In this document: positions 6,551 to 31,138 of the stretch, one piece after another
Numbering within the stretch: position 1 is the first letter of the stretch
How the letters are laid out: the number at the start of each line of letters is the position of its first letter
NCBI GenBank assembly: GCA_038064155.1
Contig: JBBTTR010000024.1
Span: 1-31,629 of the forward strand
Direction of reading: 5' to 3'
DNA: 31,629 nucleotides
Source: Patescibacteria group bacterium
GTDB lineage: Bacteria > Patescibacteriota > Minisyncoccia > Phycocordibacterales > UBA2163
Position numbers and translations under genes: made by a program
The notes under the pieces: model-generated
What the model saw: only the letters and a program-made list of their open reading frames with translations
Database searches by the model: none
Told to the model about the DNA's origin: nothing

Positions 6551-7297
6551 ATGATAAATATATACAAACCAATCGGTATATCACCACTTGATGCGATTAA
6601 AGCTTTGCGGGAAAAAAATCACGAATATAAAAATGTGCCGATAACATACGCTGGCCGGCTTGACCCTATGGCGGAAGGAGTTTTGATATTACTCGCAGAA
6701 GATGAGGTGCACAAGAAAGGTGAATACATAAAGCTCGATAAGGAATATGAAGCGGAAATTCTTTTTGGTTTTGAAACGGACACTTATGATATTTTGGGTA
6801 TCTCCCAACTAGTCCAGTTAACTGGACTAGTTGAAGATATTAAAAAAGAGATACAAAATATAGTTGGTGAAACATCCTTACCACTTCCGCAGTATTCTTC
6901 ATACAAGATAAAAGGTAAACCACTTTTTATGTGGGCGCGAGAAGGGAAGTTGGACGAGATAGAGATACCTATGCGGACTACACAGATTTATAATGCTGAA
7001 TTTTTGAGCTCTCGGGAAATAAATGAGGTTGATTTACTCGCGGAGATTACTGAAAAAATTAATTTAGTGAAAGGAGATTTTAGGCAGGAAGAGGTTTTGG
7101 AGAATTGGCAGGAAGTTTTAAACAAAGAAGACCAAAAATATTTTATAGTGAAAGCAAAGTTCAATGTCTCAAGTGGAACATATATACGTTCTATTGCTTA
7201 TCGTCTAGGAGGCATACTTCTTGGACTCACCCGTACAAAAGTAGGAAATTTTGATATAAAAGACTCTGTTAAAATTCAGATTGATATATACCCGTAA
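6551..7297 (+). CDS. truB: TruB-family pseudouridine synthase (short, no PUA domain)
   Basis: YKPIGISP, YAGRLDPMAEGVL (catalytic Asp), KEYEA..FGFETDTYD, SSGTYIRSIA. Confidence 0.8.
   Translation: MINIYKPIGISPLDAIKALREKNHEYKNVPITYAGRLDPMAEGVLILLAEDEVHKKGEYIKLDKEYEAEILFGFETDTYDILGISQLVQLTGLVEDIKKEIQNIVGETSLPLPQYSSYKIKGKPLFMWAREGKLDEIEIPMRTTQIYNAEFLSSREINEVDLLAEITEKINLVKGDFRQEEVLENWQEVLNKEDQKYFIVKAKFNVSSGTYIRSIAYRLGGILLGLTRTKVGNFDIKDSVKIQIDIYP
6806..6833. repeat. Perfect 28-bp palindrome inside truB
   Basis: CAACTAGTCCAGTT|AACTGGACTAGTTG, translated in frame as QLVQLTGLVE. Confidence 0.95.
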
Positions 7298-7314: not shown

Positions 7315-7341
7315 TCACTTGGAAACTTAGTTTCCAAGTGA
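7315..7341 (+). repeat. Family B REP-like palindrome, copy 1
   Basis: TCACTTGGAAAC-TTA-GTTTCCAAGTGA, just after the truB stop. Confidence 0.95.
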
Positions 7342-11433: not shown

Positions 11434-11820
11434 TTATATTTTAATATACTTTTTCTTTAATTTCTCCTCCTCTTTTTCCATTTTTTCTCCGTGTTTGAAG
11501 CCTTTTAGGTGAAGTAGTCCATGTATGAAAAGATATACTATAAATTCACGCTCTTCCATATTAAATTTTGGTGCGTCACGCTTTGCGATTTCTGGAGATA
11601 TAAATATTTCACCCTCTGTTTTTGAAAGAAGAAAAGTGAGTATATTAGTTGGCTTATCTTTCTTGCGGTACTTTTTATTAAGCGTTTGAGAATATTTATT
11701 TCCAATAAACACGAGACTTAGTTCATAATTTTTACCAAGAACCGCATTTTTCATATGTTCAAAAGGCAAGCCCGCGGGCTTGCCTCTGATTGTTTTTGAG
11801 ATTGTGAATTTATCTGACAT
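11434..11820 (-). CDS. ybeY: rRNA maturation endoribonuclease YbeY
   Basis: LNKKYRKKDKPTNILTF, GEIFIS, HGLLHLKGFKH zinc motif. Confidence 0.9.
   Translation of the reverse strand: MSDKFTISKTIRGKPAGLPFEHMKNAVLGKNYELSLVFIGNKYSQTLNKKYRKKDKPTNILTFLLSKTEGEIFISPEIAKRDAPKFNMEEREFIVYLFIHGLLHLKGFKHGEKMEKEEEKLKKKYIKI
11764..11785. repeat. Perfect 22-bp GC-rich palindrome inside ybeY
   Basis: AGGCAAGCCCG|CGGGCTTGCCT, translated as RGKPAGLP. Confidence 0.9.
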
Positions 11821-11859
11821 TTAGGTTTGACCTAAACAGTGTTTAGGTCAAACCTAAAC
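11820..11859. repeat. Family C REP doublet (two inverted copies, REPIN-like)
   Basis: TTTAGGTTTGACCTAAAC-AGT-GTTTAGGTCAAACCTAAAC fills the rpsU-ybeY spacer. Confidence 0.95.
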
Positions 11860-11867
11860 GACTAATT

Positions 11868-19630: not shown

Positions 19631-19673
19631 ACATCCTTTCACTTGGAAACTTAGTTTCCAAGTGAAAGGATGT
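19631..19673 (+). repeat. Family B palindrome, copy 2, with arms extended to 20 bp
   Basis: ACATCCTTTCACTTGGAAAC-TTA-GTTTCCAAGTGAAAGGATGT upstream of gyrA. Confidence 0.95.
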
Positions 19674-22202: not shown

Positions 22203-22225
22203 CTGTTTAGGTCAAACCTAAACAG
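22203..22225 (-). repeat. Family C palindrome
   Basis: CTGTTTAGGT-CAA-ACCTAAACAG, 2 nt after the gyrA stop. Confidence 0.95.
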
Positions 22226-22522: not shown

Positions 22523-22543
22523 TGTTTAGGTTTGACCTAAACA
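22523..22543 (+). repeat. Family C palindrome upstream of RAYT-1
   Basis: TGTTTAGGT-TTG-ACCTAAACA. Confidence 0.95.
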
Positions 22544-22568
22544 GAATAGAGTTGCTATAATTTAGGTA

Positions 22569-23291
22569 ATGAGGAAAGAACCATTTTTTGTTGGAGATTT
22601 TGTGCATGTTTTTAATCGTGGTAATCGCAAACAAGAAATTGTGCGTGATGAAAAAGATAAATTATATTTTTTACAAGCACTTTATTATTTTAACGACTCC
22701 CATTCAATTTTAAATATTTTTCGTAACTTGAATGACTTGTTTAGGTTTAATTTAAACAAGATGATGTGGCCAGAAGAATTTCCAAAACGTGACCCTTTAG
22801 TAAAAATTCATGCTTTTATTTTAAAAAATAATCATTTTCATCTAATTCTTGAAGAAATTAGAGAAAGTGGTATTTCTGAATTTATGAGAAAATTGAGTAC
22901 AGGAGTGACTTGTCGTTTCAACAAGAAATATGACGAAACAGGTAAATTATTTCAAGGGTCGTATAAAGCTCGTCGGGTTGACAAGGACAATTATTTGCAA
23001 TATCTAAATGTTTATATACATATAAAAAATGCTTTTGAAATGTATGAAGGCGGTATTGAAAATGCAATGAAAAATTTTGATGATGCCTATGAATTCGCGA
23101 AGAAATATCCATACAGTAGCTTGAGTGTGTATGAAGGAATAGAATCATTACTTATAAAGATAATCTCTACAGATTGGTTGATTGAAGCTTTTAATGATAA
23201 TGAGTTTAAAAATTTTTCAAAAGAATGTTTGGAATACTTAGATTTTGATGAAACAACATTGAATGTAATTTTTGAACACTCCTCTGTTTAG
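22569..23291 (+). CDS. HUH/Y1 REP-associated tyrosine transposase-like protein (RAYT-1)
   Basis: HVFNRG (H13-R17), NHFHLIL HUH motif (H89/H91), FNKKY..TGKLFQGSY, catalytic-position Y149 (YIHIKN), YPYSS; flanked by palindromes. Confidence 0.85.
   Translation: MRKEPFFVGDFVHVFNRGNRKQEIVRDEKDKLYFLQALYYFNDSHSILNIFRNLNDLFRFNLNKMMWPEEFPKRDPLVKIHAFILKNNHFHLILEEIRESGISEFMRKLSTGVTCRFNKKYDETGKLFQGSYKARRVDKDNYLQYLNVYIHIKNAFEMYEGGIENAMKNFDDAYEFAKKYPYSSLSVYEGIESLLIKIISTDWLIEAFNDNEFKNFSKECLEYLDFDETTLNVIFEHSSV
22736..22760 (+). repeat. Degenerate family C palindrome inside RAYT-1 CDS
   Basis: CTTGTTTAGGT-TTA-ATTTAAACAAG; 3 substitutions from GTTTAGGTTTGACCTAAAC, the two stem changes leave G.T pairs; encodes LFRFNLNK. 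Confidence 0.75.
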
Positions 23292-23312
23292 TGTTTAGGT
23301 TTGACCTAAACA
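23292..23312 (+). repeat. Family C palindrome immediately after the RAYT-1 stop
   Basis: TGTTTAGGT-TTG-ACCTAAACA; the stop TAG itself lies in a half-site CTGTTTAG (23284-91). Confidence 0.95.
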
Positions 23313-23417
23313 GATATAAAAGATGTTAACAGAGCACTATTGATATTATTGATTATTGTATGTAATATTAGTTAAGCTGATGAAGTTAATGAAGCTGATT
23401 TTTAATAAACTAAAATA

Positions 23418-23945
23418 ATGTTTTCTGACCCTAAAAAAAATGTAAAACGATTAGGACTTAATGAAGGTATGACGGTTGCTGATTTTGGTTCAGGCTCTGG
23501 TCATTATGTCATGGCTTTGTCTGAATTGGTGGGAGATAGAGGTCGTGTGTATGCTATAGATTTACAACAAGCGCTTTTACAGAGAGTGAAAAATATGGCA
23601 ATGGCAGAAAATATAGAAAATATAGATATTCTGTGGGGCGATATTGAAAATATTGGTGGAACAAAACTTGGCGATGAGTCTGTGGACGCGGTTATCATTG
23701 CAAACACATTTTTTCAGGTAGAAGACAAAGATACAACTATAATGGAAATACGCCGTGTGTTAAAAGAAAACGGTAAAGTGCTTGTGGTAGATTGGAGCGA
23801 TTCTTTTAATGGTATGGGTCCGCAACCTAATGATATAGTAACGGAAAGCGTATCAAGAAAAATGTTCACAGAAAAAGGTTTTGAATTTGATGAAGATTTT
23901 GATGCTGGGGAACATCATTACGGGTTAATTTTTCATAAAGGATAA
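23418..23945 (+). CDS. Class I SAM-dependent methyltransferase
   Basis: VADFGSGSGHY motif I, VYAIDL, VDAVIIAN, RRVLKENGKVLVVDW. Confidence 0.85.
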   Translation: MFSDPKKNVKRLGLNEGMTVADFGSGSGHYVMALSELVGDRGRVYAIDLQQALLQRVKNMAMAENIENIDILWGDIENIGGTKLGDESVDAVIIANTFFQVEDKDTTIMEIRRVLKENGKVLVVDWSDSFNGMGPQPNDIVTESVSRKMFTEKGFEFDEDFDAGEHHYGLIFHKG

Positions 23946-23966
23946 TATTAAAATAATACCAGGATT

Positions 23967-25271
23967 ATGAAGAACATGACGGGTTTTCAAATTGCAATAA
24001 TAGGAATATTTATAGTGCTTGCTATTGCGGGTGTTCTTGTGTTTTCTGGCATTGGCGGTTTGGGGGACAATAATCAAAAAGTGGGTGATGTTGAAATATG
24101 GGGTACTATACCGTATGAAATATTTGACAAAATGATAAGCGGACTTAACTCTGGCAACGGACGTTTCGCTGGGGTGAAATACATAGAGAAAGATAAAGAA
24201 ACATATGAAGAGGAATTTGTGGAAGCGTTAGCCGCGGGCGTTGGACCGGATTTATTTTTATTGGCACAAGATGGGATAGTGCGAAATCAGGATAAAATAA
24301 TAGAAATACCCTACGATACTATTTCTGGGCGTGATTTTAAAAATACTTTTATTGAAGAGGGAGAAATGTACCTTACGGAAAATGGCGTGCTTGGATTGCC
24401 GTTCACTATTGACCCCATGGTGATGTATTGGAATAGAGATATATTTCAGAGTGTGGGTATAGCAAACCCGCCAGAGTTTTGGGACGAACTTTTTTTATTA
24501 AGCCCAAAGATTACACAACGTGATACCGCGTCAAATATCATAAGAAGTTTTACGGCGCTTGGAGAATTTAATAATATTGAAAATGCAAAAGAAATACTCT
24601 CTGCTTTTATAATACAATCTGGTAATAAAATTATTATTCCAATAGCAACTGGATTTGAATCAATAATAAATGAGAAGCTTGATTTTGTCATACCTCCCGC
24701 GGAAGCCGCCGTAAGGTTCTATACAGAATTTTCTAACCCAATAAAATCAGTATATTCATGGAATAAATCGCTTCCAAACTCAAAACAACTCTTTACAGCG
24801 GGGGACTTGGCAGTATATTTTGGGTTTGCAAGTGAATTATCGGAAATACTCCGTTCAAATCCTAATTTAAATTTTAATATAAGCCCGTTACCGCAGTTAA
24901 GAGATGCTAATGTAAAAATAACATATGGCAAAATGAGCGCTTTTGCAATACCAAAAAACTCAAAGAATCAAACTGGGGCTTTATCTGTGGGATTTGCTTT
25001 AACAAGCTTTGAAAACATAGCGCAATTTTCGGTAAATCTTGGACTACCTCCCGTCCGTCGCGATGTTTTGACAAACAAGCCAACAGACGCGATAGGTTCA
25101 GTTTTCTACGACTCTGCTTTGATGTCAAAATCATGGTTTGACCCTGATAGCGACGAAACTGATGATATCTTTAAGAATATGATTGAATCAGTAACATCGG
25201 GCAGAGCGCGCCTTGGTGAAGCAATAAATCTTGCAGACCAAGAACTTGGTTTACTTTTACGCAGTAGATAA
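23967..25271 (+). CDS. Membrane-anchored extracellular solute-binding protein (sugar-binding family 1-like)
   Basis: N-terminal TM helix without lipobox Cys; VEIWG, AAGVGPDLF, GLPFTIDPMVMYWNRDIF, F.AG.LAVYFG. Confidence 0.75.
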   Translation: MKNMTGFQIAIIGIFIVLAIAGVLVFSGIGGLGDNNQKVGDVEIWGTIPYEIFDKMISGLNSGNGRFAGVKYIEKDKETYEEEFVEALAAGVGPDLFLLAQDGIVRNQDKIIEIPYDTISGRDFKNTFIEEGEMYLTENGVLGLPFTIDPMVMYWNRDIFQSVGIANPPEFWDELFLLSPKITQRDTASNIIRSFTALGEFNNIENAKEILSAFIIQSGNKIIIPIATGFESIINEKLDFVIPPAEAAVRFYTEFSNPIKSVYSWNKSLPNSKQLFTAGDLAVYFGFASELSEILRSNPNLNFNISPLPQLRDANVKITYGKMSAFAIPKNSKNQTGALSVGFALTSFENIAQFSVNLGLPPVRRDVLTNKPTDAIGSVFYDSALMSKSWFDPDSDETDDIFKNMIESVTSGRARLGEAINLADQELGLLLRSR

Positions 25272-25308
25272 TGTTGATATAAATTAAATAATAAGAGATA
25301 ATTTTAAT

Positions 25309-25704
25309 ATGAAAAGTGTTAATAAAATTTATTTTGGTGTAATTGCAATAATTTTATTTTTACCGATAAATTTCATAGTAGCCGCTAATGTTTCTGGGAC
25401 ACTTCAAAATCCATTAAAAGATGGGTATGCTTCAATTCCAGATTTTTTGGGCGCGCTTCTTAAGGTTGTAATAACAATTGCAATACCTATTATTATATTT
25501 ATGATTATTTATTCAGGGTTCTTATTTGTAAAAGCGCAAGGGAAGCCAGAAGAACTTGTAACCGCGAGAAAATCACTCATATGGACATTTATTGGCGCCG
25601 CGGTCATACTTGGAGCGTCACTTCTTTCATACGCAATACAGGGGACGGTAGATGAAATAAGAAGAGATGTCGCGCAATCTGGTTACACAATAGAATTAAC
25701 ATAA
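25309..25704 (+). CDS. TrbC/VirB2-like (T4SS-type) pilin 1
   Basis: Signal peptide; LQNPL; two hydrophobic helices joined by AQGKPEELVTARKSLIW. Confidence 0.75.
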   Translation: MKSVNKIYFGVIAIILFLPINFIVAANVSGTLQNPLKDGYASIPDFLGALLKVVITIAIPIIIFMIIYSGFLFVKAQGKPEELVTARKSLIWTFIGAAVILGASLLSYAIQGTVDEIRRDVAQSGYTIELT

Positions 25705-25711
25705 TATTTGT

Positions 25712-26137
25712 ATGAAAAACTACATTAAAAAAATTAAATTATTTTTATTTAGTATAATGATATTTTTTGTTCCACTTGTGTCGTTCGCGCAAAATATATT
25801 TGGATCAAGTCGTAATCCCAGTTATAAAAATTATGGTTCAAGTTATGGATTTGGAACTAAATCCGGCAGTTTCAGTTTAAATTATGTATATGGCACTGGC
25901 TCAACAATTACAGACATAATATTTTTTATGATTAATATTATAAATCAAGCCGTTGTGCTTGTTATGGCTCTCGCGCTCCTGTTCTTTTTCTGGGGCGTTG
26001 CTATGTTTATTTATAACGCAGACAATGAAGATAAGAAAACAGAAGGAAAGAAAGTAATGATGTGGGGTATTATTGCGCTATTCGTAATGCTTTTTGTGTG
26101 GCAAATAATCAACATACTGGCAAATACGTTTTTTTAA
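25712..26137 (+). CDS. VirB2-like pilin 2
   Basis: Signal peptide ending VSFA; FFWGVAMFIYNADNEDKKTEGKKVMMWGIIALFVM. Confidence 0.75.
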   Translation: MKNYIKKIKLFLFSIMIFFVPLVSFAQNIFGSSRNPSYKNYGSSYGFGTKSGSFSLNYVYGTGSTITDIIFFMINIINQAVVLVMALALLFFFWGVAMFIYNADNEDKKTEGKKVMMWGIIALFVMLFVWQIINILANTFF

Positions 26138-26252
26138 AAAATATCCACATTACCGGTATTTACAAGGTTATAAGTAACATATTATACTATTTATATAAAT
26201 TAAAATTTATTGGTCGTCTATTAATCATTAATCATTTATTATTTATATAAAA

Positions 26253-26594
26253 ATGAAAAGAATCACCTTTTTAGGTTTAAGTATAGTTGTTTTAACTCCT
26301 GCGATGGCATTAGCCGCTGATTTGGATTCCGTATTAGACAAAATAGGAGACCTTATAGGAACAGCTACTCCGATAATTGTCGCTCTAGCGCTTATATTCT
26401 TTTTCTATGGTCTTGCGAAGTATATCTTAAACTCGGGAGATGAAGAAAAGAGGACCGAAGGCAAGGGTATAATGATATGGGGCATTATCGCATTGTTTGT
26501 TATGGTATCTGTATGGGGACTGGTAAACCTTCTTGCCAATACATTTGAAGTAAATGACGGTTCAACAATAAATATACCGTCTGTTACACTCTAA
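26253..26594 (+). CDS. VirB2-like pilin 3
   Basis: Signal peptide ending ALA; FFYGLAKYILNSGDEEKRTEGKGIMIWGIIALFVM. Confidence 0.75.
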   Translation: MKRITFLGLSIVVLTPAMALAADLDSVLDKIGDLIGTATPIIVALALIFFFYGLAKYILNSGDEEKRTEGKGIMIWGIIALFVMVSVWGLVNLLANTFEVNDGSTINIPSVTL

Positions 26595-26600
26595 AATATT

Positions 26601-26849
26601 ATGTCCTCGGTTTATAAATTAATAGATAGTATTCAGTTTTTGATTATAAATCCGCTCATAGGACTTTTGTTTGCGTTAGCGTTCCTAATGTTTTTATGGG
26701 GTTTAGCTCAGTTTATTATCAATTCTGATAATGAAGAGGGTAGAACTACCGGGAAAACACATATGATATGGGGTATTGTCGGGATGTTTATAATGGTTGG
26801 CGCTTATGCCATTATAAATATTTTGAGTAACACGCTTAATACAATTTAA
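26601..26849 (+). CDS. VirB2-like pilin 4 (no obvious signal peptide)
   Basis: FLWGLAQFIINSDNEEGRTTGKTHMIWGIVGMFIM. Confidence 0.7.
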   Translation: MSSVYKLIDSIQFLIINPLIGLLFALAFLMFLWGLAQFIINSDNEEGRTTGKTHMIWGIVGMFIMVGAYAIINILSNTLNTI

Positions 26850-26865
26850 TCTCGGACCAATTGTG

Positions 26866-26907
26866 AAAAAAAACCTCCACGACGACATCGTCGTGGAGGT
26901 TTTTTTT
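26866..26907. terminator. Bidirectional intrinsic terminator
   Basis: A8-CCTCCACGACGA-CA-TCGTCGTGGAGG-T8 between convergent genes. Confidence 0.85.
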
Positions 26908-26946
26908 GCTGAAATATGTTTATAAATTTGTATACCGTACTAATTC

Positions 26947-27429
26947 TTACCCAGTCTTAATCTTAAGCTTAGTCTGCTTCTCTTTATTTATTTTAGGCAT
27001 TACGATTGTTAGAAGACCATGCTTTTCGCTGGCTGTTGATTCATCCACTTCAATTTCCTGTGGCAAAAGAATAGTTCTAGAAAATGAACCCCAGTAAAGT
27101 TCTTTATAGAAATAATTATCTTCTGTAACTTGTTTTACTTCCTCACGCTTTCCTTTTATAGTCACCATATCACGTGTTATGGACACGTCTAAATTTTCTG
27201 GTCGTACTCCCGCGACAAGAGCTTTTATAATAATTTCATTCGGGTTCTGATATACATCTACTGTAAGCTGTCCTTCATTATTGTCTTCTTCCATCCAATC
27301 ATTTTCAATACTGGAATCAGACATGGAATTATCCGGAACAGTATCTATTTTCACAGATTCTTCCGCGCCGTAATCGTCTATGTTGACTGTTCCAGTAAGT
27401 CTTTCAAAAAATGAGGGTCTTTTTGCCAT
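26947..27429 (-). CDS. Small heat-shock protein (Hsp20/alpha-crystallin)
   Basis: VDVYQ..EIIIKALVAGV.PENLDVSIT..MVTIKGKR, ELYWGSFSRTILLP, GLLTIVMPK. Confidence 0.9.
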   Translation of the reverse strand: MAKRPSFFERLTGTVNIDDYGAEESVKIDTVPDNSMSDSSIENDWMEEDNNEGQLTVDVYQNPNEIIIKALVAGVRPENLDVSITRDMVTIKGKREEVKQVTEDNYFYKELYWGSFSRTILLPQEIEVDESTASEKHGLLTIVMPKINKEKQTKLKIKTG

Positions 27430-27433
27430 AATT

Positions 27434-28126
27434 TTATTTTATTAATTTATTTTTAATTTTCTTAACTTTTTCAAAAAGAAGTATAAGAATAATTATTCCA
27501 ATCCACACGAAGATAAATATAGTCAATATTTTATTTCCACTTCCTTTTATTATAAAAAAGTTAAATAGACTATGCAATAGGATTGCGAGAATAAGTCCGT
27601 ATAACGCGTATGTTTTCTTAAATATTTTCTTTTTGTAAAAAGAGAGAGCTATCATCACGCCGACTATCGCAGATGAAAGCGTATGAAGGAGTGTTGCGCC
27701 TAAAAATCTCAAATTACCATTTATGACGGTATTCATAAAGTTGCCGTCCATTATTGGATTTATTAGAAATAGCGTGTTTTCAAGCGCTGCAAATCCAAGA
27801 GCAACTGTAATCATATAAATCACGACATCAATAGGCTCATCAACCGCTTTTCTTTTTAATATTATAAAATAGGCTAAAATATATTTGAATATTTCCTCAA
27901 GCACAGACCACAGCACTATCACCACCGTGCCAGAAAAGTATGTATCAGCTAACTTTTCAAAAGGTAGTACTATTGGCGCTGCTATCATTCCGATTATAAA
28001 AGCAAGCATTATCATACCTCTTGGTTCTGGACGTTTCTTATCTTGTTTAAGCCAAAACCAAAGCCATAAAAGAGATGGGAAGACTCCTCCTAATAGCGCG
28101 AATGATAATGTTTGAAATGAGAACAT
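27434..28126 (-). CDS. prsW: PrsW-family intramembrane metalloprotease
   Basis: DKKRPEP, EEIFK, DEPID....ITVALGFAALEN, LHTLSS, LHSLFN; start set at MFSFQ because the upstream Mets lie in a hairpin. Confidence 0.85.
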   Translation of the reverse strand: MFSFQTLSFALLGGVFPSLLWLWFWLKQDKKRPEPRGMIMLAFIIGMIAAPIVLPFEKLADTYFSGTVVIVLWSVLEEIFKYILAYFIILKRKAVDEPIDVVIYMITVALGFAALENTLFLINPIMDGNFMNTVINGNLRFLGATLLHTLSSAIVGVMIALSFYKKKIFKKTYALYGLILAILLHSLFNFFIIKGSGNKILTIFIFVWIGIIILILLFEKVKKIKNKLIK

Positions 28127-28133
28127 ATGTTTA

Positions 28134-28171
28134 AGTATTGGCATTAGTATACTCATACTAATGCCAATACT
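28134..28171. repeat. Perfect 17-bp-arm hairpin between valS and prsW
   Basis: AGTATTGGCATTAGTAT-ACTC-ATACTAATGCCAATACT abutting the valS stop; no U-run. Confidence 0.85.
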
Positions 28172-30331
28172 CTATTGTGGCCAACTAGCGACGATAAGCG
28201 TTTCGCTATCTTTTTTCGGCAAACTCTGCCATATTTCTTCTGTAATAAACGGAGCAAACGGATGAAGCAGTTTCAGGCATGTTGTAAGTATAGTATATAG
28301 TGTCCATTTTGCCGATTTTTTGTCCACGTCACTGCCATTTTGAAGGACAAGTTTTACTTCTTCAATATATATGTCCGCGAAATTATGCCACACCCAATGA
28401 TATATTTCGTCTGCCGCGAAATCTGGTCTATATCCATCTATATTATCGGATACGGTTTTTGTTATATTATTCAAATTTTTTATCCATTCTTTATCCAAGG
28501 CGCTAAGTTTTGGTTTTTCTTTTATGTTTTTCTCATCAACATTTGAAAGCACGAAGCGTGCAATGTTCCAGATTTTGTTTGAAAAATTTTTGTATCCTCT
28601 TATTTTGTCTTCTGACAAACTTATATCATTACCCGGCGGCGCGCCTACAATAAGAGAAAGGCGCGCCGCGTCCGCTCCATATTTTTCTGTCATATCAAGT
28701 GGGTCAATTATATCCCCGCTACTTTTACTCATCTTCTTTCCTTTTGCGTTTAGCACCATCCCATGTAGATAGACTTTCTTAAACGGCACATCGCCAAGCA
28801 GATATCCTGACATCAAAATCATTCTTGCAACCCAAAAGAAAAGAATATCGTGACCTGTCTCCAACACACTTGTCGGATGAAAATTCTTCATATCATCAGT
28901 ATCCTCAGGCCAGCCGAGAGTGGAGAATGTCCACAGCCCAGAAGAGAACCATGTATCAAGCGTGTCGGGGTCTTGTGTCCACCCATCGTCTTCTGGTGCA
29001 TCCACACCTACATATACTTCCTTGTCTTTATTCCATACAGGTATTCTATGTCCATACCAAATCTGCCTACTTATGTTCCAGTCATTTAATTTATCTATCC
29101 AATGAAAATAAGTTTTATCAAAATGTTTTGGAATAATCTCAATTTGCCCACTCTCTACGGTCTTTCTCATTATTTCTTTGAGGCTCGTTTCGTCGCCATT
29201 TTTTATACCATTTATTTTTGAGTTCTTAAGTTTGAATTTTTTATTTACATCAACAAACCATTGCTCTTTTATCTGCGGTTCAATCACACCTCCACCACGA
29301 TAGTTTGTCGCAAGGTTGAGTGTATAGTTTTCATTTATTTTTGTAACTAATCCTTTTTCTTTTAACTTTTCAACTATCATAGACCGCGCTTTCTTAATAT
29401 GAATTCCCGCAAACTCTTTTGTTATTGGCAATAGTTTTCCATTGAAATCAATTATTTGTTCTGTGTCCAGATTGTGTCTTTTTGCAATTTCAAAGTCAGT
29501 CGCATCATGCCACGGAGTTATAGTCATCACACCTGTTCCAAACTTCATATCTACAGCTTCGTCTTTTATAACAGTTGCAGTGATTGGTCCGTTTATCCAT
29601 TCTAAATCAAGTTTCTGTCCGTGTTCATATTTTTTATATCTTTTATCATCTGGATGCATTACAACATATTTGTCTCCAAATTTTGTTTCAGGACGCGCAG
29701 TACCGATTTCAAAAGGTCCGTACTTAAGATAATAAAACGGTGATTTTTCCTCTTTGCGTTCTATCTCATCATCGGAAACGTTTGATTGCATTTTAGGGTC
29801 CCAGTTTACAATTCTGTTACCGCGATAAATAAGTCCGTTGTCGTACATTCGTTTGAATGCTGTTTTTACAGCTAAACTTCTTTTTTCATCAAGAGTATAA
29901 GTTTCTCTACTCCAGTCAATAGACGCACCCATTTTTTTAATCTGATTAACAATAGTATCGTGGCTTTCTTTCGCAAATTGTTCAACACGCTTTAGAAATT
30001 CTTCACGTCCCAAATCGTGTCGCGTTTTCTTTTCTTTTTTATACAATATTTCTTCAATTTTTGACTGTGTTGCGATTGCCGCATGGTCTGTTCCAGGTAG
30101 CCACAGCGTCTTCTTACCCTTCATCCTGTTATAGCGTACAAGAATATCCTCAATAGCGAGCATTGCCGCGTGTCCCATATGAAGCGTACCTGTCACATTT
30201 GGAGGGGGAAGTATTATAGAGAAAGCTTCTCCTGCGCCTTTAGGCTTGAAAAAACCACCCTCTTCCCAGAGTTTGTAGATTTTACTTTCAGTTTCCTGCG
30301 GATTATATGGTTTTAGGAATTTATCGTCCAT
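28172..30331 (-). CDS. valS: Valine--tRNA ligase lacking the C-terminal coiled-coil arm
   Basis: PPPNVTGTLHMGHA (HIGH), PGTDHAAIATQ, WNISRQIWYGHRIP, KMSKS; ends at SWPQ; start set at MDDKFLKPY because GTG 30385 lies in a palindrome. Confidence 0.95.
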   Translation of the reverse strand: MDDKFLKPYNPQETESKIYKLWEEGGFFKPKGAGEAFSIILPPPNVTGTLHMGHAAMLAIEDILVRYNRMKGKKTLWLPGTDHAAIATQSKIEEILYKKEKKTRHDLGREEFLKRVEQFAKESHDTIVNQIKKMGASIDWSRETYTLDEKRSLAVKTAFKRMYDNGLIYRGNRIVNWDPKMQSNVSDDEIERKEEKSPFYYLKYGPFEIGTARPETKFGDKYVVMHPDDKRYKKYEHGQKLDLEWINGPITATVIKDEAVDMKFGTGVMTITPWHDATDFEIAKRHNLDTEQIIDFNGKLLPITKEFAGIHIKKARSMIVEKLKEKGLVTKINENYTLNLATNYRGGGVIEPQIKEQWFVDVNKKFKLKNSKINGIKNGDETSLKEIMRKTVESGQIEIIPKHFDKTYFHWIDKLNDWNISRQIWYGHRIPVWNKDKEVYVGVDAPEDDGWTQDPDTLDTWFSSGLWTFSTLGWPEDTDDMKNFHPTSVLETGHDILFFWVARMILMSGYLLGDVPFKKVYLHGMVLNAKGKKMSKSSGDIIDPLDMTEKYGADAARLSLIVGAPPGNDISLSEDKIRGYKNFSNKIWNIARFVLSNVDEKNIKEKPKLSALDKEWIKNLNNITKTVSDNIDGYRPDFAADEIYHWVWHNFADIYIEEVKLVLQNGSDVDKKSAKWTLYTILTTCLKLLHPFAPFITEEIWQSLPKKDSETLIVASWPQ

Positions 30332-30378
30332 ATTTAAGATACTTCTTATAATACCAATAATACCAAAATATAATACAC

Positions 30379-30411
30379 AAGTCACTTGGAAACTTAGTTT
30401 CCAAGTGACTT
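30379..30411 (+). repeat. Family B palindrome, copy 3, upstream of RAYT-2 (15-bp arms)
   Basis: AAGTCACTTGGAAAC-TTA-GTTTCCAAGTGACTT. Confidence 0.95.
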
Positions 30412-30432
30412 ATAAAATGATAGAGTTTACTT

Positions 30433-31116
30433 ATGAGAAAAATAAAATTTGTAAAAAAAGAGTTTTATCATATTCTTAATAGAGGTGTAGACAAAAGAAT
30501 AATTTTCCCTGAACAAGATGATATAAACAGATTTTTTCAAAGCATGAAGGAATTTAATGTTATAGAACCAATAGGGAGTATTTATGAAAATTCATTTAAC
30601 AAGAATAAACTTGGAAACTTAGTTTCCAAGTTGGAGGGTGGTAATGATAAACAGGGAAAACTAGTTAACTTCATATGTTACTGTCTTAATCCAAATCATT
30701 ACCATTTTATTCTTGAGCAATTGGTTGAAGACGGTATAGCAAAATTAATGCATAAAATAGGGTTAGGTTATACAAAATATATAAATGAAAAATACAACCG
30801 TTCAGGTTCATTATTTCAAGGAACATTTAAAGCGGTACATATAAATACAAATGCACAGTTATTGCATACCAGTGCTTATGTCAATTTAAATGATGAAGTT
30901 CACCAACTTGGAAACTTAGTTTCCAAGTTGGGAAAATCAAGTTGGAAAGAATACATTAACGAAGATATTAAAGATCCATTTTGTAAGAAAGATATTATTT
31001 TAGGACAATTTAAAAATAAAGCGGATTATAAAAAGTTTGCAGAAGAATCATTAGAATATATTTTAGAAAAAAGATACATAGATGAAAAAGGTGAGAAAGA
31101 GCTATTTCTTGAGTAA
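30433..31116 (+). CDS. HUH/Y1 REP-associated tyrosine transposase-like protein (RAYT-2)
   Basis: YHILNRG, YCLNPNHYHFIL (H89/H91), YINEKY.RSGSLFQGTF, Y149 (YVNLN), SSWKEY; flanked by palindromes. Confidence 0.9.
   Translation: MRKIKFVKKEFYHILNRGVDKRIIFPEQDDINRFFQSMKEFNVIEPIGSIYENSFNKNKLGNLVSKLEGGNDKQGKLVNFICYCLNPNHYHFILEQLVEDGIAKLMHKIGLGYTKYINEKYNRSGSLFQGTFKAVHINTNAQLLHTSAYVNLNDEVHQLGNLVSKLGKSSWKEYINEDIKDPFCKKDIILGQFKNKADYKKFAEESLEYILEKRYIDEKGEKELFLE
30608..30632 (+). repeat. Family B palindrome inside RAYT-2 (codons 59-67)
   Basis: AACTTGGAAAC-TTA-GTTTCCAAGTT, encodes KLGNLVSKL. Confidence 0.97.
30903..30931 (+). repeat. Second family B palindrome inside RAYT-2 (codons 157-167)
   Basis: CCAACTTGGAAAC-TTA-GTTTCCAAGTTGG, encodes QLGNLVSKLG. 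Confidence 0.97.
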
Positions 31117-31138
31117 CTTGGAAACTTAGTTTCCAAGT
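31116..31138 (+). repeat. Family B palindrome overlapping the RAYT-2 stop codon
   Basis: ACTTGGAAAC-TTA-GTTTCCAAGT; first A is the last base of TAA. Confidence 0.97.

Follow-up and report, generated by a model that had tools for sequence, protein, structure and literature searches.

Predicted RAYT-like nuclease genes of Patescibacteria carry the palindromes of their own flanks in frame at fixed positions

A 31,629-nucleotide contig of a Patescibacteria group bacterium (JBBTTR010000024.1, analysed over its whole length and referred to here as the window) encodes two predicted Y1/HUH nucleases, RAYT-1 and RAYT-2, and each gene is bracketed by a short palindrome that recurs, in frame, inside the gene itself. 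Here we report that such a cognate internal palindrome lies at fixed positions of the coding sequence and is recurrent across Patescibacteria. The textbook example of a domesticated transposase that lives alongside its repeats is provided by RAYTs (REP-associated tyrosine transposases) and the repetitive extragenic palindromes (REPs) that accompany them; there is as yet no settled account of the spread of the repeats or of the joint diversification of enzyme and repeat. The window is contig C24 of its own genome (G000), a 458-kb assembly of 45 contigs that is 88% complete, and the sequencing runs that contain its sequence are groundwater metagenomes.

Homologues were sought in 61 genomes, the window’s own and 60 relatives from the same genus and order, and were present in 42, with a maximum of 13 homologous matches in one sub-megabase genome. 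The 91 complete genes with flanks that were taken from these genomes form set 1. Set 2, which is independent, holds 75 complete genes of named Patescibacteria, the group to which the named relatives with homologues belong, and takes in Moran-, Niyogi-, Yanofsky-, Giovannoni-, Nomura-, Davies- and Levybacteria. Together the sets comprise 166 complete homologues (loci L001–L170). For each gene, 120 nt of flank from either side were compared with the interior of the coding sequence, and the longest exact match was recorded, with a threshold of 14 nt.

In set 1, 56 of 91 cognate pairs (own flanks against own coding sequence) share at least 14 nt, compared with 1 of 274 pairs in which the flanks belong to another paralogue of the same genome and 69 of 7,916 pairs in which they come from other genomes. 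The corresponding values in set 2 are 33 of 75 cognate and 37 of 5,550 non-cognate pairs, with matches in the same slots. Among all 166 genes, 103 have flanks that share a repeat of at least 14 nt and 89 have an internal cognate copy. The matches fall at codons 49–73 (slot 1), at codons 144–171 (slot 2) or at the extreme C terminus, nearly all of them in the two slots; those at the C terminus arise because the downstream copy overlaps the gene there. Slot 1 precedes the HUH strand, slot 2 directly follows the catalytic-tyrosine helix, and both are surface segments. The initial annotation of the window had proposed that each gene holds its own palindrome and never the other’s, and had named the homologues as the place to refute the idea that the family regularly shows this layout. 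The near absence of matches between same-genome paralogues bears out the former claim, and the number and placement of internal copies across the homologues bear out the latter.

At Escherichia coli K-12 rayT, the sole classical locus used as a control, the flanks share a 37-nt REP and the coding sequence contains nothing above the 8–9-nt background. Chance and assembly artefact were ruled out as sources of the arrangement, which recurs in independent genomes and samples; shuffled sequence is expected to yield 0 matches to either palindrome of the window. The slot-1 copy usually points the same way as the downstream copy (14:4) and more often than not the opposite way to the upstream copy (16:10), tendencies that are too loose to serve as a clue to mechanism, and an orientation rule was dropped.

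In the window itself (Table 1), four of the 18 exact copies of palindrome 2 in the 458-kb genome lie at RAYT-2, and four of the nine copies of palindrome 1 (at three or fewer mismatches) lie at the RAYT-1 locus. The second internal copy of RAYT-2, at codons 158–166, had been absent from the initial claim; adjoining codons lengthen it to a 14-bp perfect stem. Decay has not abolished folding of the internal copy of RAYT-1 (8-bp outer stem, −5.0 kcal/mol), and all copies at the two loci form DNA hairpins of −5 to −14 kcal/mol with z values of −4 to −7.5. Extragenic copies of palindrome 2 end in TCA...TGA; both copies inside RAYT-2 have A...T at that pair, and the TGA end would be a stop in the reading frame of RAYT-2. 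Copy-specific perfect extensions of the stem, reaching 4–17 bp past the shared core, are present in 8 of the 18 copies of palindrome 2, compared with 0.65% of random positions. Across the nuclease genes, internal copies have 12–19 perfect pairs, which exceeds the part shared with the flanks.

Table 1 Features of the two nuclease loci and dispersed palindromes in the window
Feature	Position	Strand	Evidence
RAYT-1, Y1/HUH nuclease gene (predicted), 240 aa	22569..23291	+	Pfam Y1_Tnp 31.7 bits, cut-off 23; H13, R17, H89, H91, Y149 conserved
Palindrome 1 (21 nt), 4 nt past gyrA stop, opposite loop orientation	22204..22224	-	Exact match
Palindrome 1, upstream of RAYT-1 by 25 nt	22523..22543	+	Exact; DNA hairpin -7.1 kcal/mol, z -5.9
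Promoter-like site TTGACC-18-TATAAT, 11/12, TG-extended	22532..22561	+	Consensus scan, pattern match only
Decayed in-frame palindrome 1 in RAYT-1, 18/21, codons 57-64, slot 1	22738..22758	+	3-mismatch match
Palindrome 1, downstream, abuts RAYT-1 TAG stop	23292..23312	+	Exact match
Two adjoining palindrome 1 copies, opposite orientations	11818..11860	.	2 and 1 mismatches
RAYT-2, Y1/HUH nuclease gene (predicted), 227 aa	30433..31116	+	Pfam Y1_Tnp 24.9 bits, cut-off 23
Palindrome 2 (21 nt), upstream of RAYT-2; perfect hairpin 30380-30410	30385..30405	+	Exact; -13.8 kcal/mol
Palindrome 2 in frame, slot 1, codons 59-67, peptide LGNLVSKL	30610..30630	+	Exact; -9.9 kcal/mol; pLDDT dips to 64-80
Palindrome 2 in frame, slot 2, codons 158-166, peptide LGNLVSKL	30907..30927	+	Exact; -14.0 kcal/mol
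Palindrome 2, downstream, directly past RAYT-2 TAA stop	31117..31137	+	Exact match
Dispersed palindrome 2, between convergent open reading frames	7318..7338	+	Exact-match search of window
Dispersed palindrome 2, upstream of gyrA, 11-bp copy-specific stem extension	19642..19662	+	Exact-match search and stem analysis

Two further paralogues in G000 were found with tblastn on contigs C3 and C27. The C3 gene has its own palindrome in the flanks and in both slots, and the C27 gene has its own in the flanks and in slot 1, so the own-palindrome layout is present in all four paralogues of this genome. The C3 family has 7 copies, 3 of them at the gene, and the C27 family about 8, with 4 at the gene. 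A 53-codon N-terminal Y1_Tnp fragment (C19:14765–14890, L236; 19.5 bits, below the cut-off) adjoins palindromes 2 and 3 and is probably the remnant of a fifth nuclease gene.

RAYT-1 and RAYT-2 are 30% identical, and H13, R17, H89, H91 and Y149 stand at identical numbers in both, as initially annotated; the accompanying description of a gap-free alignment holds only approximately, as the variable segment is aligned with two 5-residue indels that compensate each other. Among 86 sequences, H91 and Y149 never vary, and conservation of H89 is 90% or higher. The Y1_Tnp (PF01797) assignment was also obtained in a whole-genome family search. Against the NCBIfam RAYT equivalog NF047646, RAYT-1 and RAYT-2 score 23.9 and 21.9 bits, below the cut-off of 80, and a profile search of the PDB gave no match at E ≤ 0.01, so that solved structures were reached through fold comparison alone. 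An AlphaFold2 model of RAYT-2 (86 sequences; mean pLDDT 89.7) places Y149 within helix 140–151 and has two dips in pLDDT, at residues 51–80 and 151–170, which are the two slots. Its best PDB match is 4ER8_A, the E. coli REP-associated transposase bound to a hairpin (Foldseek E 7e-6; VIA-align Z 15.5 over 149 residues, model residues 1–211), and the IS608 and ISDra2 transposases score clearly lower (Z of about 10). As the sequence link is weak and fold and layout match, we call the genes RAYT-like and not members of the curated equivalog: by modelled fold and gene layout, RAYT-1 and RAYT-2 are predicted RAYT-like Y1/HUH single-strand-DNA nucleases.

Comparison of orthologous sites separates each hairpin into a conserved outer stem and a variable tip. 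In the clade of RAYT-2, slot 2 has a constant length and a conserved outer stem that encodes H-Q-L-G ... S-K-L-V; its inner stem and loop vary by genome and match each gene’s own flanks. In the G009 orthologue (74% identical), slot 1 contains a decayed palindrome of the G000 type, and slot 2 and the flanks carry another. A pattern scan for tip families across the genus, in which the counts per family are those among the matches listed, found in each genome a few uniform tip families on a common outer stem. Within that scope, copies at the nuclease gene account for 3 of 3 of the L003 type in G009, 3 of 3 of the L072 type in G007 and 4 of the L002 type in G008. Three single hairpins of G000 (C3:7147, C9:15523 and C28:25810) have the outer stem of the family and odd tips, one of which resembles the dominant tip of the sister genome G009; these hairpins may have survived from earlier tip families.

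The same pattern extends to housekeeping genes. In G000, tgt, mnmA and a holA-like gene each contain palindrome 2 in frame; all three are otherwise intact, as are the nuclease genes with internal palindromes. The position, frame and outer stem of the tgt site are shared by G000, G007, G009 and G008, and the tips are identical to nuclease-linked palindromes of the respective genome (L001, L009, L033 and L002). Elsewhere, the tgt site of G026 partially matches its own palindrome, those of G003 and G006 look decayed and that of G005 is empty. In G008, tgt (L189) carries an inverted dimer of its own palindrome with a 25-bp perfect stem, translated as 16 residues. The mnmA site has four or five tip types in the same pattern, that of G008 matching its own L031 palindrome, and is empty in G004, G005 and G009. 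In G024, the variable segment of tgt (L200/L201), the one that houses the palindrome in G000, is 166 residues long, compared with 27 in G000, within a 556-codon open frame. Separately, a perfect 28-nt palindrome lies in frame within the open reading frame at 6551–7297 of the window (6806–6833); relatives with 2–4 mismatches are present on C14, C10, C28 and C43, and no nuclease gene was assigned to this family.

The upstream hairpin ends a median of 24 nt before the ATG across the 166 loci, and a −10-like hexamer (consensus match) ends 6–10 nt before the ATG in 94 of the 166 genes. At RAYT-1, the −35 hexamer of the promoter-like site lies within the loop and 3′ arm of the upstream palindrome 1, and the −10 (TATAAT) ends 7 nt before the ATG, a spacing that implies a leaderless mRNA. 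These pattern matches suggest that mRNAs of the family generally lack a leader and that the hairpin lies over the core promoter, and autoregulation through an upstream copy that overlaps the promoter of a leaderless gene is plausible. For RAYT-2, the consensus scan gives no scan-level promoter over the upstream hairpin. This copy of palindrome 2 (window 30376–30414) also lies inside the stop-to-stop frame of a divergent valyl-tRNA synthetase gene (28172–30385, minus strand), upstream of the probable true start of that gene, and scores on the minus strand as an 18-pair terminator-like hairpin.

The reading that we favour, with modest confidence, is that the hairpins occupy resident sites whose tips are renewed in place by the nuclease, the internal copies being ordinary targets. 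Each gene and its private hairpin family would form a compact unit. The sites would be long-lived, and the apical part would be replaced where it stands and held to one sequence throughout a genome; the likeliest agent would be the nuclease itself, cutting and rejoining hairpins in single-stranded DNA, whether it excises a hairpin and re-inserts it where it had been or exchanges the tip. Renewal by the nuclease has a precedent in TnpA-REP, which cuts on the 5′ or the 3′ side of its hairpin and carries out strand transfer (PMC8266576). Copies inside the gene would be ordinary members of the target population, tolerated because both slots are permissive; every change of family would recode a few enzyme residues, and the enzyme, bound to the promoter copy and perhaps to the internal ones, may damp expression of its own gene.

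Several observations weigh against renewal in place by the nuclease. Assembled contigs from four runs in four studies revealed no excision or exchange junctions and 0 differences. At tgt and mnmA, filled and empty alleles differ by 4–5 codons, whereas the element measures 23–29 nt, and simple insertion or excision therefore fits poorly. Tips for which no matching nuclease gene was found in the genome occur at mnmA in G002 and G007. Stems may also be perfected and extended by replication template switching at quasi-palindromes, a route for which the nuclease is not needed. Finally, 47 of the 103 repeat-flanked genes have no internal copy, so an internal copy is not required. Contigs do break at the slot-1 copy; the joints listed have sides of 20–28 nt and resemble repeat artefacts. 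A comparison of palindrome conservation with synonymous divergence in orthologue pairs did not discriminate, because shared 18-mers are common in conserved motifs of AT-rich genes.

The initial annotation had gone further and proposed that the internal position is a dedicated slot, which could be a master template for the dispersed repeats or couple the evolution of enzyme and target. A palindrome of the gene’s own at a fixed position stands; a dedicated slot that acts as master template or specificity coupler is not established, because palindrome 2 is also in frame in the three housekeeping genes, because orthologous tgt and mnmA sites carry genome-specific tips like those of the nuclease slots, and because of the 47 repeat-flanked homologues that lack an internal copy.

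It is unlikely, in our assessment, that the internal copies are a passive by-product, left by small mobile hairpins that land wherever they are tolerated and, because the nuclease would act preferentially close to its own gene, enter the two permissive loops repeatedly and independently, with no role and no maintenance. Such landing agrees with the presence of the same element in three unrelated genes and of another palindrome family in the open reading frame at 6551–7297, with the position of the slots in the least confident parts of the RAYT-2 model, with a slot-1 palindrome that is variably present among close orthologues, and with intragenic REPs known elsewhere (PMC3733652). However, the length and outer stem of slot 2 are the same across the clade and the tip alone varies, lack of a slot-1 palindrome does not leave a gene one element length shorter, and the G009 orthologue has kept an older-type relic in place. 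Families found only at the gene, among the matches listed, offer no dispersed source, and the tips at the tgt and mnmA sites differ between sister genomes. The simpler alternative offered in the initial annotation, a cis-biased one-off insertion into a tolerant loop, is left incomplete by the same constancy of slot 2 around a varying inner part, by the G000-type relic in slot 1 of one orthologue and by the several families that, among the matches listed, have no copies outside the gene.

Less likely again would be a selected autoregulatory device, in which the hairpins at the promoter, inside the gene and at the stop codon are operator-like, the enzyme or the DNA or mRNA hairpin limits synthesis, and selection keeps the match. 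Given the position of the −10-like box in 94 of 166 genes, the upstream hairpin would cover the −35 region and spacer, and the TTGACC of RAYT-1 is inside it; the internal stems are longer than the part shared with the flanks, and it has been proposed in the literature that REP hairpins down-regulate RAYT (PMC3733652). Against such a device stand the RAYT-2 hairpin, over which no scan-level promoter lies, the many family members that lack internal copies, and the copy-specific stem extensions at sites unrelated to the nuclease gene.

We regard as improbable a bolder form of the favoured reading, in which the nuclease would rewrite resident tips genome-wide, including those in its own gene, and so recode its own, possibly DNA-contacting, residues together with its current target. 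If true, this would be a self-referential enzyme–target pair driving rapid, orthogonal diversification of paralogous systems in sub-megabase genomes. Very improbable, and the least probable of these readings, is self-coupled specificity, in which residues encoded by the hairpin contact the hairpin and a change of the internal copy alters target and reading head together: slot 2 does follow the catalytic helix, the 4ER8 alignment runs through the slot-2 region, the corresponding region is touched by deletions in the E. coli enzyme that remove its C-terminal region (helix α5 and the segment after it) and impair binding and cleavage (PMC8266576), and tip and peptide change together by necessity, but one hairpin gives two peptides when slot orientation differs (NPAT and GGGV in L002), the peptides that these same tips encode in tgt and mnmA are passengers, and model confidence is low at both slots.

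Among known systems, the loci are closest in layout to REPtrons (TnpA-REP/RAYT; E. coli in group 2, Stenotrophomonas and Marinomonas in group 3), which also combine a single-copy Y1/HUH gene with a palindrome family of its own on both sides and include paralogues with separate repeat families; 4ER8 from this group is the best structural match. RAYT-1 and RAYT-2 each have copies of one palindrome family on both flanks, as REPtrons do, and REPtrons whose repeats occur only at the gene have already been reported (PMC3733652). Unlike REPtrons, the genes described here carry cognate hairpins in frame at two conserved slots, of which E. coli rayT has none; their proteins are about 60 residues longer and score 22–24 bits against the NCBIfam RAYT cut-off of 80. 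They also differ in number, with up to 13 homologous matches per sub-megabase genome and small families of 3–18 copies: those of G000 have 18, about 9, 7 and about 8 copies in 458 kb, and some sister families 3–4 among the matches listed. No GTAG tag was seen beside the hairpin copies inspected at the locus and in the genome, where no systematic search was made; the conserved outer stem may play the role of this tag.

The REPIN–RAYT systems of Pseudomonas, reportedly the work of Bertels and Rainey, likewise pair a nuclease with a repeat population that is vertically inherited, each RAYT having its own family beside the gene; REPINs differ in being extragenic doublets present in tens to hundreds of copies. 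IS200/IS605 elements (IS608 and ISDra2) share the Y1 fold (Z of about 10), subterminal hairpins at both ends of a unit of ~0.8 kb and single-stranded DNA chemistry, and G000 contains a solo remnant that resembles a right end. This remnant (C40:25619–25670) consists of the last 24 nt of the RAYT-2 coding sequence and the downstream palindrome 2, at 94% identity and without the gene; its likeness to a solo right end hints that a whole unit, or its end, was once copied. Unlike IS200/IS605, there are no identical multi-copy elements or duplicate units (the four G000 paralogues are 30–50% identical), the fold is nearer to the RAYT structure, and the end and internal hairpins have the same sequence. 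Intragenic REPs and the palindromic elements of Rickettsia are also short palindromes translated in frame in working housekeeping genes (Di Nocera 2013, PMC3733652, and Ogata 2000 as cited there); here, the palindromes are instead tied to a nuclease gene, lie inside that gene and have genome-specific tips at orthologous sites. A full-text literature search, which did not cover all journals, returned REPtrons, REPINs and intragenic REPs and no cognate repeats inside a RAYT coding sequence. The REPtron-type layout is itself known; for cognate hairpins within a RAYT-like coding sequence, we found no published description.

In this clade, the target is written into the gene of the enzyme: promoter, coding sequence and terminator all carry the hairpin. 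The layout shows that minimal genomes can accommodate numerous hairpin insertions within essential proteins. It also offers hundreds of natural enzyme–target pairs and datable in-place replacements; with these pairs and the tip differences at orthologous sites, both the specificity code and the mechanism of turnover become testable by comparison and by simple oligonucleotide assays. For specialists in mobile elements and HUH enzymes, the family makes it possible to follow a DNA-cutting enzyme and its target sites as they change in concert.

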